Shown here: one piece after another, positions 2,769-6,592 of the stretch
Layout: each line of letters starts with the position of its first letter
How positions within the stretch are numbered: position 1 is the first letter of the stretch
Source: a virus
Lineage: Duplodnaviria > Heunggongvirae > Uroviricota > Caudoviricetes
Direction: 5' to 3' (one strand)
Length of the DNA: 6,592 nt
Virus record (IMG/VR): IMGVR_UViG_2547132273_000014
Span: 1 to 6,592 of that record
Notes under the pieces: model-generated
The model's database searches: none
Told to the model about the DNA's origin: nothing
Seen by the model: only the letters and a program-made list of their open reading frames with translations
Made by a program: the position numbers and the translations under genes

Positions 2769-3152
2769 TCAACCAATCAACTTATAGCGACCATCCCGTG
2801 CATTGCGACGTACACGCTCAATCTTGAGGCATAGCGCCGCATCTGGCTTTTTTGGGACAGGTACGCGGCAATATTCAGAAGCTCGAGGAATATTGTTTAT
2901 CCAGTCGATCACTTCACTTAAATACCAGGCCTTACGCCCTTCCGTAACCTGTACGCGCTCGGGGAACTCTCCGCGAGCCTCAAGGTTTAGCAATGTGCGA
3001 CGGCTAAGGGTAGTAAGTTCCATCACCTGATTCATATCAACAAGGCGTTCACTTAAACGCATTTTGTCAGCAATAGCCTTTAATTCCTCTACTGCTGGAT
3101 CCGGATACATCATTTCGGCAATTGGCTTAAGGTCATTGTAATGATTCTGCAT
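2769..3152 (-). CDS. 127-aa DNA-binding protein with an AlpA/Vis/excisionase-type winged HTH (MerR superfamily), flanked by N- and C-terminal extensions
   Basis: Central motif MELTTLSRRTLLNLEARGEFPERVQVTEGRKAWYLSEVIDWI fits the AlpA/Vis-family pattern (L-x-x-LSR-x-T-L...G-x-FP-x-x-V...GR-x-A-W...E-V-x-x-WI). Strong RBS AGGGGG 5 nt upstream of the ATG at 3150-3152. The stop at 2769-2771 is about 25 bp before cosQ. Confidence 0.65.
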   Translation of the reverse strand: MQNHYNDLKPIAEMMYPDPAVEELKAIADKMRLSERLVDMNQVMELTTLSRRTLLNLEARGEFPERVQVTEGRKAWYLSEVIDWINNIPRASEYCRVPVPKKPDAALCLKIERVRRNARDGRYKLIG

Positions 3153-3514: not shown

Positions 3515-4561
3515 TTAGCCAATGCGAACGGTAACAAAACGATTGATGCGGGCCGGTATTGGCTGTGGTGCTGAATGTGTCTGCACATATTCAATAGCCG
3601 GATCACCAGGCACAATATAGTTTTTCGGTGCAAGTTCGGCTTTAGTCAGCCCCATCCGAATTAGCTCCGGATCCTGAATACCGCCATAAGCGACAATCCC
3701 CTGAAGAGCCGTATTGCCAAGCACCATCAAATCAGGATCAAGGAAATATTTTTCAGTTCCGTCCTCGTCGGTATAACGCCCGCTGTAAACAACAATCGCA
3801 ACATCGCCCATATACCCTTTAAAACTCACCGAATCACCAAGGTCTTTAAGGGCCGTTTCCAGTTCGGAATTAGAACCTCGACGGGTATCCAGAGCCTCTT
3901 TTACAGCTCTGAATGAGCGGTATTTTTTCCATACATTGCCGCCCATAATAATGATATTAGTGACTCCCTCACTAAATTCTGCGTAGCTCTCAATATCATC
4001 ATTTGGATCAAAAGATCCTTTATCCTTACCTGACCACTCAGCACCGCCAGACTGAGTGATGATATTTTGTGGTTTAATATTCCAGTCCAGTTCATAACGT
4101 TCAATACCATCGCCCTCAATGATATTTTTCCCCGTTGTGATTGCCTGAACAGCAAGCCATTCAATACGTGCACGTATAGCTTTAGCCTGATTTACAATCG
4201 CCTGTTTAACTTTAATATTACGCGCCCCAAAAGCATTGTATTGTTCAGGTGATACACCAGCAGGGCGCACAGCTAACTTATTTGGATCAATGCTGCTTTT
4301 CGGTTTCATATAGCCAGGGCGAATTGTTTTTGATTCGTATCCCTCATCTCGTGAAACTTTACTGCCCACCATAGGAGAGCAAAACGCCGCGATCGGGATA
4401 TTTGGATCGTCGATCGTATCAAGAATAATGTCTCTCGATTCAAACATTACCGAGCGAGTGAAAAACAAACTGGTAAACAACGCATTTAATTTTTTTTGCA
4501 CATCTTCAGCATTAGCCACCTGCACAAGCTGTGTAGGCGAATATAAATCAACCATACTCAT
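3515..4561 (-). CDS. Lambda gpE-like major capsid protein
   Basis: From the internal start MSMVDLYSPTQL... (ATG at 4559-4561; alternative ATG at 4553-4555) the product is 348 aa, against lambda gpE at 341 aa, and aligns throughout with lambda E as I recall it: ITQSGGAEWSGKDKGSFDPNDDIESYA against ITQSGGTEWSKRDKSTYDPTDDIEAYA; LDTRRGSNSELETALKDLGDSVSFKGYMGDVAIVVYSG against LDTRRGSNSELETAVKDLGKAVSYKGMYGDVAIVVYSG; MVLGNT...YGGIQD against MVLGNT...YGCIQD. The ORF-track N-terminal 27 aa (MHLVACIR...) are probably not translated. Confidence 0.88.
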   Translation of the reverse strand: MSMVDLYSPTQLVQVANAEDVQKKLNALFTSLFFTRSVMFESRDIILDTIDDPNIPIAAFCSPMVGSKVSRDEGYESKTIRPGYMKPKSSIDPNKLAVRPAGVSPEQYNAFGARNIKVKQAIVNQAKAIRARIEWLAVQAITTGKNIIEGDGIERYELDWNIKPQNIITQSGGAEWSGKDKGSFDPNDDIESYAEFSEGVTNIIIMGGNVWKKYRSFRAVKEALDTRRGSNSELETALKDLGDSVSFKGYMGDVAIVVYSGRYTDEDGTEKYFLDPDLMVLGNTALQGIVAYGGIQDPELIRMGLTKAELAPKNYIVPGDPAIEYVQTHSAPQPIPARINRFVTVRIG

Positions 4562-4726
4562 CCTCTTTACATTCATTACAAATAATTGTGAATATATTCT
4601 ATTACCGATGTCTGCTATGCGAATACATGCAACCAAGTGCAATGTTGTATAAAATCTGCCGTGACAACTTCAGTGCTGATAATTCGTGTTAATGTATTTA
4701 CTTCCTTTGGTCGGGATTTATGTAGC

Positions 4727-4761
4727 ATGCCGGAAAATCTATTTTCTTCCGGCATTTTTTT
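4727..4761 (+). terminator. Plus-strand-oriented intrinsic-terminator-like hairpin in the SSB/capsid intergenic region
   Basis: 9-bp stem ATGCCGGAA (4727-4735) / TTCCGGCAT (4747-4755), 11-nt loop, then T6 (4756-4761). On the minus strand the run is A-rich before the stem, so it is not a terminator for the flanking minus-strand genes. Confidence 0.4.
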
Positions 4762-4772
4762 ATTTGCAGAAT

Positions 4773-5195
4773 TTAAAACGGTATATTATCGCCGTACGGA
4801 TCATCATTCCCCGACTGTTGTTTTGCCCTGTTCAGTGCGTCAGTAGCCTGGCCCTGTTGACCTTTTTTGCCGCCCGGTCGCGCCGTTCTGGCACTGATTA
4901 CACTGTCTGCGATAACCTGCCAGCCCTGCCGCGTTTCGCCGTTCTGGCCTGTCCACTGGCTTACCTGCATGTTACCCGCCACGCTCACCAGTTCGCCTTT
5001 GTGGTGTTTTGCCAGTGCGTCGGCCTGTCTGCCAAACGCCAGGACGGATAACCACATCGTCGCCGTTCCGTCATCTGCCTGGCTGCACGGAAGTGGGACC
5101 GCCATACTCGCCATCGTCATTTGTGTACCCTTGCTGGTGGTCTTTAACTGCGGGTCAGCCACCAGCCGCCCGTAAGCCGCTATCTGTGCTGTCAT
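4773..5195 (-). CDS. Single-stranded DNA-binding protein (SSB)-like, with acidic C-terminal ...DNIPF tail
   Basis: 140 aa. The OB-fold region resembles E. coli SSB as I recall it: IAAYGRLVADPQLKTT against VILVGNLGQDPEVRYM; MWLSVLAFGRQADALAKHHKGELVSVAGNMQVSQWTGQNGETRQ against [45 protein letters not shown]. A Gly/Gln-rich linker leads to a terminal DDPYGDNIPF, compared with SSB DDDIPF. The start ATG overlaps the stop of the upstream ORF (ATGA). Confidence 0.72.
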   Translation of the reverse strand: MTAQIAAYGRLVADPQLKTTSKGTQMTMASMAVPLPCSQADDGTATMWLSVLAFGRQADALAKHHKGELVSVAGNMQVSQWTGQNGETRQGWQVIADSVISARTARPGGKKGQQGQATDALNRAKQQSGNDDPYGDNIPF

Positions 5196-5437
5196 GCTGT
5201 CTGCTCTCCGGTTTTAACGTTGATGGTTGTCACCTGTTCCGCTTCGGCAATCTCCCGTTCTGTCAGCGTGGCAAAGTTTGCAGCTGCCGTTGTCATGAAT
5301 GAGCTAATCAGTTCGGGATGTGCTTTCGCATATCCTTCCCCGGCGTTGCGGTCGATGATTTTTATCGACACCCTTAACCAGTGTTCCGTCAAATCAAGGG
5401 CGTGCGATTGTGATTTTTTTGTGTGCTTCGCTGTCAT
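5192..5437 (-). CDS. Hypothetical 81-aa protein, translationally coupled to the SSB-like gene
   Basis: ORF MTAKHTKKSQSHALDLTEHWLRVSIKIID... lies between the iteron array and the SSB-like gene in the same orientation, with a 4-bp ATGA stop/start overlap. I recognise no family and the RBS is weak. Confidence 0.45.
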   Translation of the reverse strand: MTAKHTKKSQSHALDLTEHWLRVSIKIIDRNAGEGYAKAHPELISSFMTTAAANFATLTEREIAEAEQVTTINVKTGEQTA

Positions 5438-5482
5438 AGGCTTTATCTCACAGCAGTAAATTAAAATTTTTGCGTTTTAACC

Positions 5483-5712
5483 CTTCACCTGTTCACCTTT
5501 TGATATTTTATCTTTTAATTCATAATGTTAAGGGGTGAACAGTTTCACAAAAACTATTCACCAACTGTTCACCACTGTTCACCCTTGAAGCTCAATAAAC
5601 AATCAAAAAGGTGAACAGTGAATAGTTTGGTGAACAGTTCATAAATAACTGTTCACCCTATAACATACTGATACAAAAGATATTTATGACAGGGTGAACA
5701 GTGGTGAACAGT
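5483..5712. repeat. Iteron array: at least 9 perfect copies of TGTTCACC / GGTGAACA (10-bp unit ACTGTTCACC) in both orientations; P4 ori/crr-like primase-binding repeats
   Basis: Forward TGTTCACC at 5490, 5566, 5576 and 5650. Reverse GGTGAACA at 5534, 5610, 5629, 5693 and 5703. Degenerate copies at 5483-5489, 5555-5562 and 5618-5625. Interspersed A/T-rich tracts (5461-5480, 5498-5530). The array sits directly after the stop of the primase/helicase gene. Confidence 0.8.
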
Positions 5713-5724
5713 TATTCCATAAGT

Positions 5725-6592
5725 TTAATTTTTGCTATCGTCATTAGTGACCGATACACATGATGGCATCCAGTCTTCTGATTCCTCCGTCAGTGTCACG
5801 TTTGAACGCAAACCGTGCTTCGTTTTCCGTTTCATATACTCCCTGCCATATTCCGCCATTGCCCCCGGCATATCTTTACCGAAGCGCGTCAGTGTTACAG
5901 GTTTACCAAACCCATGTGCCCTCATATAAGCCAGATAGGCATGATAGAGATACCTGCGTGGGCTGAATGGCACAATTTCAGCATTACCCACTAACAGGCC
6001 ATCACACATTACCGACGCCATGAGATAGCCGCAGAAGTCCACCAGCGAATCCCCCTCTCGCTTTATCGCCAGTGCTTCTTCAGATTTCTGCTGCTCATAT
6101 AACAGGCGTCTGGCTTCGTCCTGGTCAGCAAACCGTGTAAGCAGATGGCGAATCACTACCGCCAACTCACCTTCTATTTTTTCCGCCAGCATTGGATCGC
6201 GTTCGTTCTCCGGTACAACTTCCGAAAAATTGAATATCACCCGACGACGTGAGATCCCCCCGCTGCGGTCACTGAATGACATGGCGTTATTGTTAACCGC
6301 CAGCACTACTGCCGGAATACGCGTTGAGTAGGGGGCTTTGTGTTTCGGGTCAATTGCCACCTTGTCACCGCCTGTAATGGCCTTAATTCCTGCCCCATCA
6401 CCAGCGTAGCGGGTCATATCCGGCATGATAATCAGCGAAAAGCCAACCACTAACGCGCGTTCCCTTGCATCTTCCAGCGCCTTCATGCTTGCCGATACTG
6501 TGTTGGCCTTACCCGCCAGCATGGTGCAAATCTCCGCCATCACGCTTTTACCACTTCCCCCTGGACCTGTTACCTCAATGAATAACTGCCAG
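5725..6592 (-). CDS. P4-alpha-like primase/helicase, C-terminal helicase portion (5'-partial; continues beyond window end)
   Basis: The open frame runs to the window edge. Its translation contains the Walker A motif in ...WQLFIEVTGPGGSGKSVMAEICTMLAG... and downstream helicase-like motifs (LIIMPDMTRYAGD). It is immediately followed by the TGTTCACC iterons that are the recognition repeats of P4 alpha. The ORF-track start at 6543 is an internal GTG. Confidence 0.8.
   Translation of the reverse strand, partial: WQLFIEVTGPGGSGKSVMAEICTMLAGKANTVSASMKALEDARERALVVGFSLIIMPDMTRYAGDGAGIKAITGGDKVAIDPKHKAPYSTRIPAVVLAVNNNAMSFSDRSGGISRRRVIFNFSEVVPENERDPMLAEKIEGELAVVIRHLLTRFADQDEARRLLYEQQKSEEALAIKREGDSLVDFCGYLMASVMCDGLLVGNAEIVPFSPRRYLYHAYLAYMRAHGFGKPVTLTRFGKDMPGAMAEYGREYMKRKTKHGLRSNVTLTEESEDWMPSCVSVTNDDSKN

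Follow-up and report, generated by a model that had tools for sequence, protein, structure and literature searches.

In a 6,592-bp window of viral DNA, the whole stretch analysed here, a dense field of repeated octamers lies directly behind a gene for a protein that resembles the alpha protein of phage P4. The question raised by this locus is whether the field is the site at which an element starts its replication, an accessory site for a separate origin, a regulatory region for transcription, or a repeat without a role in replication. The initial annotation favoured the second of these readings, likening the field to the cis replication region (crr) of P4. Here we conclude that the field is very probably the single vegetative origin (ori) of a phage-inducible chromosomal island (PICI) of the EcCICFT073 type, integrated next to tRNA-Ile2 (CAU) beside mug. 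Judged from the DNA sequence, it is a real and almost certainly functional site of a known kind, a Gram-negative PICI ori whose allele already occurs in catalogued PICIs; the new points are modest, and consist of a half-site anatomy like that of P4 ori1 and a specificity shared with P4.

All genes around the field lie on the minus strand, in the order alpha-like gene, field, 81-aa open reading frame (ORF), SSB gene, capsid gene, decoration gene, AlpA-like regulator and terS, followed by a tRNA and mug. The 3' part of the initiator gene, which encodes a P4-alpha-like SF3 helicase with a C-terminal winged helix, occupies 5725..6592 (stop codon at 5725-5727) and runs off the window. On the other side of the field, the 81-aa ORF (5437-5192, minus strand; PHROG 1231, function unknown) overlaps the SSB gene (5195-4773, minus strand), the two together spanning 4773..5437, so that the field separates this pair from the helicase gene, as the initial annotation had described. 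The tRNA (866-941) has a CAU anticodon, is annotated as tRNA-Ile in a near-identical genome and adjoins mug; it was the sole match in an Rfam search of the window, which placed no family in the field. The AlpA-like regulator in this order, a 127-aa HTH protein (2769-3152, minus strand; PHROG 2790, excisionase/AlpA-type regulator) encoded between the genes for head decoration and terS, is the second of its kind on the island and lies at a distance from the integrase end.

The window is 99.3% matched to a stretch of the complete Escherichia coli genome L003, in which the island extends for ~10.5 kb from the tRNA to the integrase gene (L003 12865-23260), with the gene order int, alpA-type HTH, Icd-like, DUF4222, pri-rep, ori, SSB, capsid, decoration and terS. 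This context (about 10-12 kb, with unidirectional genes) fits a PICI, on comparison with EcCICFT073 and the elements of IHE3034 and ATCC 25922, and the pair of 81-aa ORF and SSB gene also follows the origin in the EcCICFT073, IHE3034, 042 and ATCC 25922 PICIs. The field itself is present in 665 of 5426 complete E. coli genomes.

We scanned the whole 6,592-bp window for the octamer TGTTCACC and found nine exact copies on both strands, at 5490(+), 5534(-), 5566(+), 5576(+), 5610(-), 5629(-), 5650(+), 5693(-) and 5703(-). All of them fall within 5490-5710, and the window outside the field contains zero exact copies. The chance expectation is a mean of 0.24 copies, and 0 of 200 dinucleotide-preserving shuffles reached nine or more. 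Two tandem pairs with a spacing of 10 bp, 5566/5576 and 5693/5703, were confirmed. Three further slots are occupied by degenerate iterons, defined as in-register copies with one or two mismatches to TGTTCACC: CCTTCACC at 5482 in a left pair, TATTCACC at 5555 in a left triplet and TATTCACT at 5617 on the reverse strand in a right triplet. The field therefore holds 12 iteron slots (9 exact and 3 degenerate) over 5482-5710, arranged as two sets of six. The initial annotation, which had listed at least nine perfect octamers in mixed orientation, the same direct copies 10 bp apart and A/T-rich tracts between the octamers, agrees with these positions and with the base composition given below.

Two variations on the array lie outside this count. 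In E. coli 07_3636 (L082), a 10-bp insertion aligned to window position ~5563-5566 amounts to one extra CTGTTCACC iteron in the left triplet, a length of one helical turn. Beyond the window, within the initiator coding sequence, the island carries a lone exact TGTTCACC (L003 18995-19002), with AGTTCACC 32 bp away; this isolated copy is probably fortuitous. The alpha gene of P4 contains a second origin, ori2, which is said to be without iterons.

The octamer TGTTCACC is the 'ori type 1 repeat' that the P4 GenBank record (X51522) annotates in both ori (9310-9413) and crr (4291-4590), with 11 of the annotated sites being exactly TGTTCACC; its identification in the initial annotation as the recognition repeat of P4 alpha was thus correct. 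A search for the octamer in published full texts returned matches to unrelated primers only. In P4 ori1, iterons are located at 9310-, 9320-, 9331- and 9353+, followed by a 35-bp A/T tract and a pair at 9396- and 9406-. The right, gene-proximal module of the field (5610..5710, plus strand) follows the order of P4 ori1 without a change of strand: a triplet at 5610-, 5617- (degenerate) and 5629-, a single inverted iteron at 5650+, a 35-bp A/T tract and a pair at 5693- and 5703-, with spacings of 7, 12, 21, 43 and 10 bp as compared with 10, 11, 22, 43 and 10 bp in P4 9310-9413. The left, gene-distal module (5482..5583, plus strand) is the reverse complement of this layout and runs from a pair at 5482+ (degenerate) and 5490+ through a 36-bp A/T tract to an inverted iteron at 5534- and a triplet at 5555+ (degenerate), 5566+ and 5576+; its spacings of 8, 44, 21, 11 and 10 bp compare with 10, 43, 22, 11 and 10 bp in P4 ori1. 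Each half aligns over its full length with P4 9296-9425, leaving 34 invariant columns (alignment A1).

The iteron map of the whole field accordingly reads + + [AT] - + + + in its left half and - - - + [AT] - - in its right half, and the field (5482..5710, no strand assigned) forms an imperfect palindrome of 229 bp centred near 5596. A repeat finder run on the field detected inverted arms of 56 nt (5509-5564 and 5627-5682) that are 75% complementary and reach into the A/T spacers, and detected no long direct repeat. When folded as single-stranded DNA (241 nt), the field forms one long hairpin (-50.7 kcal/mol, z = -8.6).

Three A/T-rich segments separate the iteron groups, with a GC content of 17-27% against a window average of 48%. 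The left tract (36 bp, 5498..5533, 17% GC) is the counterpart of the 35-bp tract of P4 ori1 and a predicted unwinding site, and the right tract (35 bp, 5658..5692, 26% GC) is a second predicted unwinding site; the central spacer (26 bp, 5584..5609, 27% GC) lies at the dyad axis between the two triplets. The least stable 30-mer of the 6.6-kb window, 5503-5532, falls in the left tract, and 5658-5687 in the right tract ranks third, whereas the central spacer is less unstable, at -35.6 as against about -29 kcal/mol per 30 bp for the flanking tracts. DnaA boxes were absent from the field. The second least stable 30-mer of the window (4575-4604) is found in the 217-bp gap between the SSB and capsid genes (4556-4772), where EcCICFT073 has perC and a small ORF; this gap may represent a promoter region or the trace of a deletion.

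The protein predicted to act on this field is encoded immediately upstream of it. The window holds the C-terminal ~289 codons, and the full protein in L003 comprises 605 residues, which share 48% identity with residues 290-771 of P4 alpha (the SF3 helicase and C-terminal domain) and match D5_N, DUF5906 and Pox_D5 in Pfam. The 605-residue protein showed no alignment to alpha residues 1-289 (the Zn-ribbon and Toprim part) and no match to Pfam Zn_Ribbon_Prim or Toprim, both of which are matched by P4 alpha itself, and its N-terminal ~120 residues (L003 19182-19541) have PHROG 2850 (function unknown) as their sole match. The designation of the gene as a primase/helicase gene in the initial annotation thus holds for the helicase, while the label 'primase' is unsupported, since no primase domain is recognizable. 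Over all 605 residues, the protein shares 49% identity with the Pri-Rep of EcCICFT073, a 584-aa product annotated as 'DNA primase family protein', and the two have in common an N-terminal region of ~117 residues that is absent from P4 alpha. A BLASTP search beside the initiator gene for a homologue of Cnr, the copy-number regulator of P4, found none.

The last ~100 residues of the initiator match the crystal structure 1KA8 ('Phage P4 Origin-Binding Domain') with E = 1.8e-24, and their codons (5725..6030, minus strand) are predicted to encode a winged-helix origin-binding domain. An AlphaFold model of the window-encoded C terminus (pLDDT 85.7) superposes on 1KA8 with TM scores of 0.84/0.94 and an rmsd of 1.0 A, and places the segment K-R-K-T-K-H-G-L-R-S in a beta-hairpin wing (strands 78-81 and 84-87). 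The winged helix is 49% identical to the P4 domain and 34% identical to that of EcCICFT073. Because the winged helix is nearer to P4 while the N-terminal domain is of the PICI type, the initiator is, on these comparisons, a mosaic. P4 alpha reportedly binds type I iterons, that is TGTTCACC, through its C-terminal domain, and both the annotation of the P4 record and the PDB title of 1KA8 are consistent with such binding.

We examined slot conservation in 12 aligned variants from five genera, E. coli, Klebsiella (the cf-PICI vB_KppS-Ant), Kluyvera, Raoultella and Pluralibacter. All 12 slots are retained across the 12 variants, with a column identity of 94.6% in the iterons and 76.2% in the spacers, and 76% of columns are invariant in the slots versus 28% in the spacers; the difference in identity is significant (Mann-Whitney p = 8e-14), a value that is approximate since the sequences are related.

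In more distant relatives the field still lies directly after the gene, and the octamer differs, being TGTCTACC, TGTCCGCC or TGTCCACC, TGTGCACC, or TCTCTACC. These changes are accompanied by changes in the wing. Elements with TGTTCACC, including the window, P4, the Klebsiella and Kluyvera elements and all others examined except one, carry a wing of the form KR[KH]TKxG[IL][RQ][ST]N; the exception is a Rahnella element (L038) with the wing KAKTNAGMRYN. Three elements with TGTCTACC (L007, L011 and L012) carry five additional residues within this wing segment, although their initiators scarcely differ from that of the window elsewhere in the winged helix: the wing KRKTKHG-LRSN becomes KRAKCTKGPDKGRVITN as the iterons change from TGTTCACC to TGTCTACC, and by this sequence comparison the insertion is a compact natural specificity switch. 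The octamers TGTCCGCC, TGTGCACC and TCTCTACC, found in the Serratia, Proteus, Symbiopectobacterium and CFT073 groups, are each paired with a wing variant of their own. Since octamer and wing change together in relatives, direct recognition is supported, and the comparison argues strongly, if indirectly, for reading of the octamer by the winged helix and for the wing as the determinant of specificity.

These observations bear on the possibility that the field is merely a low-complexity or fortuitous repeat, or is a site of packaging (cos/pac) or of recombination, and takes no part in replication. The long imperfect palindrome recalls some sites of the latter kinds and the island does have a terS gene, but no shuffle equalled the nine copies and the slots are conserved across genera, and the repeat co-varies with the initiator wing within a layout that is that of the annotated P4 origin; we consider this explanation extremely improbable.

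The gap between two gene blocks that the field fills would also suit a region devoted mainly to transcriptional control, in which the iterons would be operators for a promoter of the 81-aa ORF, SSB and capsid genes, or would serve termination of the initiator's own transcript, with any origin role secondary or absent. Plasmid iteron arrays often autoregulate as well, and A/T-rich DNA could harbour a non-consensus promoter. However, a search of both strands between 5100 and 5900 yielded neither a sigma-70 consensus promoter nor an intrinsic terminator. A mere 14 nt separate the initiator stop codon from the first iteron, in contrast to P4, where a terminator stands between alpha and crr. Furthermore, published work describes Gram-negative PICIs as being transcribed as a single unit in one direction (PMC6092414), and the genes downstream of the field vary, with a capsid gene in vB_KppS-Ant in place of the SSB gene here. 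The presence of the same field before different downstream genes indicates that it travels with the initiator gene and not with the downstream operon. A predominantly transcriptional role is therefore very unlikely. The same results lend no support to the proposal of the initial annotation that the field may double as the promoter region of the 81-aa ORF and SSB genes; a weak or activator-dependent promoter may still lie within it.

The reading of the field as an origin has also to be distinguished from the role that the initial annotation gave it, that of a P4-style crr, an initiator-binding cis enhancer of replication that starts at a separate origin on the island. P4 ori1 reportedly needs crr in cis, and the field resembles crr in several respects: both follow an alpha-type gene directly, both contain the same octamer, and the crr units share with ori1 a core of iteron pair, 35-bp A/T tract and inverted iteron. 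The P4 crr, however, consists of two direct 120-bp repeats, with the map - + + + [AT] - - in gene orientation, whereas the modules of the field are inverted and map as ori1-type. The true crr-type map (51- 65+ 72+ 83+ 126- 135-) was found only in P4 and in two other elements, L027 and L030, both of which carry full-length P4-type alpha genes; its recurrence after P4-type alpha genes shows that the two layouts are distinct and that each is conserved. No second iteron cluster is present on the ~10.5-kb island, which contains the lone intragenic copy only, and relatives scanned with 10-kb flanks have a single field each, again with no second cluster. As no other cluster occurs on the island and a crr-like helper makes no sense without an origin, the field should be the origin itself. 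Comparison with P4 ori and crr, which the initial annotation had proposed as a check, thus upholds the position 3' of an alpha-type gene and the octamer common to both P4 sites, and places the layout with ori1. Identity with crr is rejected in view of how the repeats are oriented, how the iterons map and the lack of any partner cluster, and we regard an enhancer acting on a separate island origin as highly improbable.

Published work on PICIs points in the same direction. In Gram-negative PICIs, the origin is the DNA directly behind the 3' end of the initiator gene (Fillol-Salom et al. 2018, ISME J, PMC6092414). EcCICFT073's pri-rep-ori segment drives plasmid replication, whereas rep or ori mutants or deletions do not (PMC6092414; restated in PMC10111431); in this homologous element, pri-rep and the corresponding intergenic region are thus sufficient for replication, which also argues against a crr-type enhancer. 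That a PICI ori has been published in exactly the position of the field supports its reading as an origin. Moreover, EcCI224 (Table S1, PMC6092414) encodes an initiator in which 602 of 605 residues are identical to those of the island protein and has an identical iteron map, and EcCIRM13514 has an initiator of 87% identity with the same TGTTCACC octamer.

The catalogued E. coli PICIs fall into several origin types. EcCI224 and EcCIRM13514 carry the allele of the window and the IHE3034 and ATCC 25922 PICIs the CFT073 allele, while EcCI11368.1 and EcCI042 have a RepA-type helicase instead, with other iterons. The PICIs of E. coli 042 (L084) and O26 11368 (L085) retain the same gene order with this unrelated helicase, and EcCI042 has a different iteron, AAGTGAGG, in the same intergenic position (L084 5203-5403). 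On sequence grounds, this distribution points to exchange of the initiator-plus-origin cassette as a module among E. coli PICIs.

We infer for the island allele how binding, melting, helicase loading and the direction of replication may proceed. After induction, the island initiator, a P4-alpha-like SF3 helicase with a C-terminal winged helix, would be made, and its winged helix would bind the 12 TGTTCACC-type iterons, with the beta-hairpin wing reading the central bases of the octamer. The iterons would present two mirror-image modules, each with the P4 ori1 core of pair, 35-36-bp A/T tract, inverted iteron and triplet, and binding on either side of the two very unstable A/T tracts would lead to melting. 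In the model published for PICIs, melting occurs in the DNA that separates the two sets of iterons (PMC6092414), which in the field is the 26-bp central spacer; this DNA is less A/T-rich than the two tracts at 5498-5533 and 5658-5692, which we favour as the probable melting sites. The initiator would then load itself as a hexameric helicase, probably as one ring per module and in opposite directions, to give bidirectional, DnaA-independent replication, and the strands so opened would be covered by the SSB, whose gene lies close downstream. The adjacent modules may replace the ori1 and crr pair of P4, since with two modules side by side a distant crr-like partner would be unneeded.

The contiguous double module is not confined to PICI-type initiators, as it is likewise found behind full-length alpha genes of the Toprim type in Symbiopectobacterium, Enterobacter and Rahnella (L052, L012 and L038). 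A split layout is seen three times: in P4, in a P4-like element of Erwinia and in cf-PICI-like elements of Proteus. In the cf-PICI-like element of Proteus mirabilis L044, which has genes for capsid, protease, portal, HNH, TerS and TerL, the alpha-like gene is followed at once by an ori1-type TGTGCACC module, and the mirror image of this module is found 7.9 kb from it, beyond terL and close within the end of the element (11404-11506 and 19320-19411); the same is seen in L046. This arrangement has the look of a palindromic origin divided in nature and recalls ori1 and crr of P4. It is conceivable, though doubtful, that the contiguous two-module palindrome is the basic and possibly ancestral form of the alpha-family origin, of which the bipartite ori1 and crr of P4 would be a split version; the comparison also suggests, speculatively, that the two modules are the functional unit.

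Because the PICI allele and P4 share octamer and wing motif, P4 alpha and the island Pri-Rep may fire each other's origins. If so, two satellite families would belong to one replication-specificity group, with cross-activation or interference when they are co-resident. The joint change of iteron central bases and wing is a clean natural experiment on specificity and could guide the design of orthogonal replicons, and the comparative data frame the question of why P4 needs crr, namely whether two adjacent inverted ori1 modules remove that need. Our analysis locates the origin of a satellite that is very common in E. coli, and 'origin of replication, initiator-binding iterons' can confidently be carried over as its annotation; the current understanding of PICI or P4 replication is left unchanged.

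The field can be compared with several known systems. Origins of the SaPI/PICI type, reportedly described in Gram-positive cocci, lie 3' of the rep gene, with iteron sets flanking A/T-rich DNA and a helicase-initiator that loads itself. The field is alike in this organization only, its iteron sequences and DNA-binding domain being unrelated.

In EcCICFT073, too, the ori lies directly 3' of pri-rep (gene end at 9996, first iteron at +15), and two iteron sets with A/T-rich DNA precede a small ORF and the SSB gene within the same island gene order. The intergenic region has the same map, and is built from the octamers TGTCTACC, TATCTACC and TCTCTACC where the island has TGTTCACC. The experimental tests of origin function concern the EcCICFT073 allele (PMC6092414). 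The island further differs from EcCICFT073-type PICIs in its location at tRNA-Ile2 beside mug, an att site absent from the 2018 table of eight E. coli PICI sites (PMC6092414), although PICIs in tRNA-Ile2 have been mentioned (PMC10111431).

With the P4 crr, the field shares its place just 3' of an alpha-type gene, its type 1 iterons and the core that crr has in common with ori1 (pair, 35-bp A/T tract and inverted iteron); it differs in that crr is made of direct 120-bp repeats, has a terminator between it and alpha and does not serve as the origin, while the field comprises inverted ori1-type modules. P4 ori1 is a single module located 4.7 kb upstream of alpha, whereas the island has two such modules, adjacent and head to head, directly after a gene whose product lacks the Zn-ribbon/Toprim primase of alpha. 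In their construction, the field and P4 ori1 correspond: the octamer is the same, each half of the field has six slots in the same orientations and at nearly equal spacings (7/12/21/43/10 in the right half and 10/11/21/44/8 in the reverse-complemented left half, versus 10/11/22/43/10), a 35-36-bp A/T tract occupies the same place between the single inverted iteron and the pair, and the initiators are homologous in both the helicase and the origin-binding domain.
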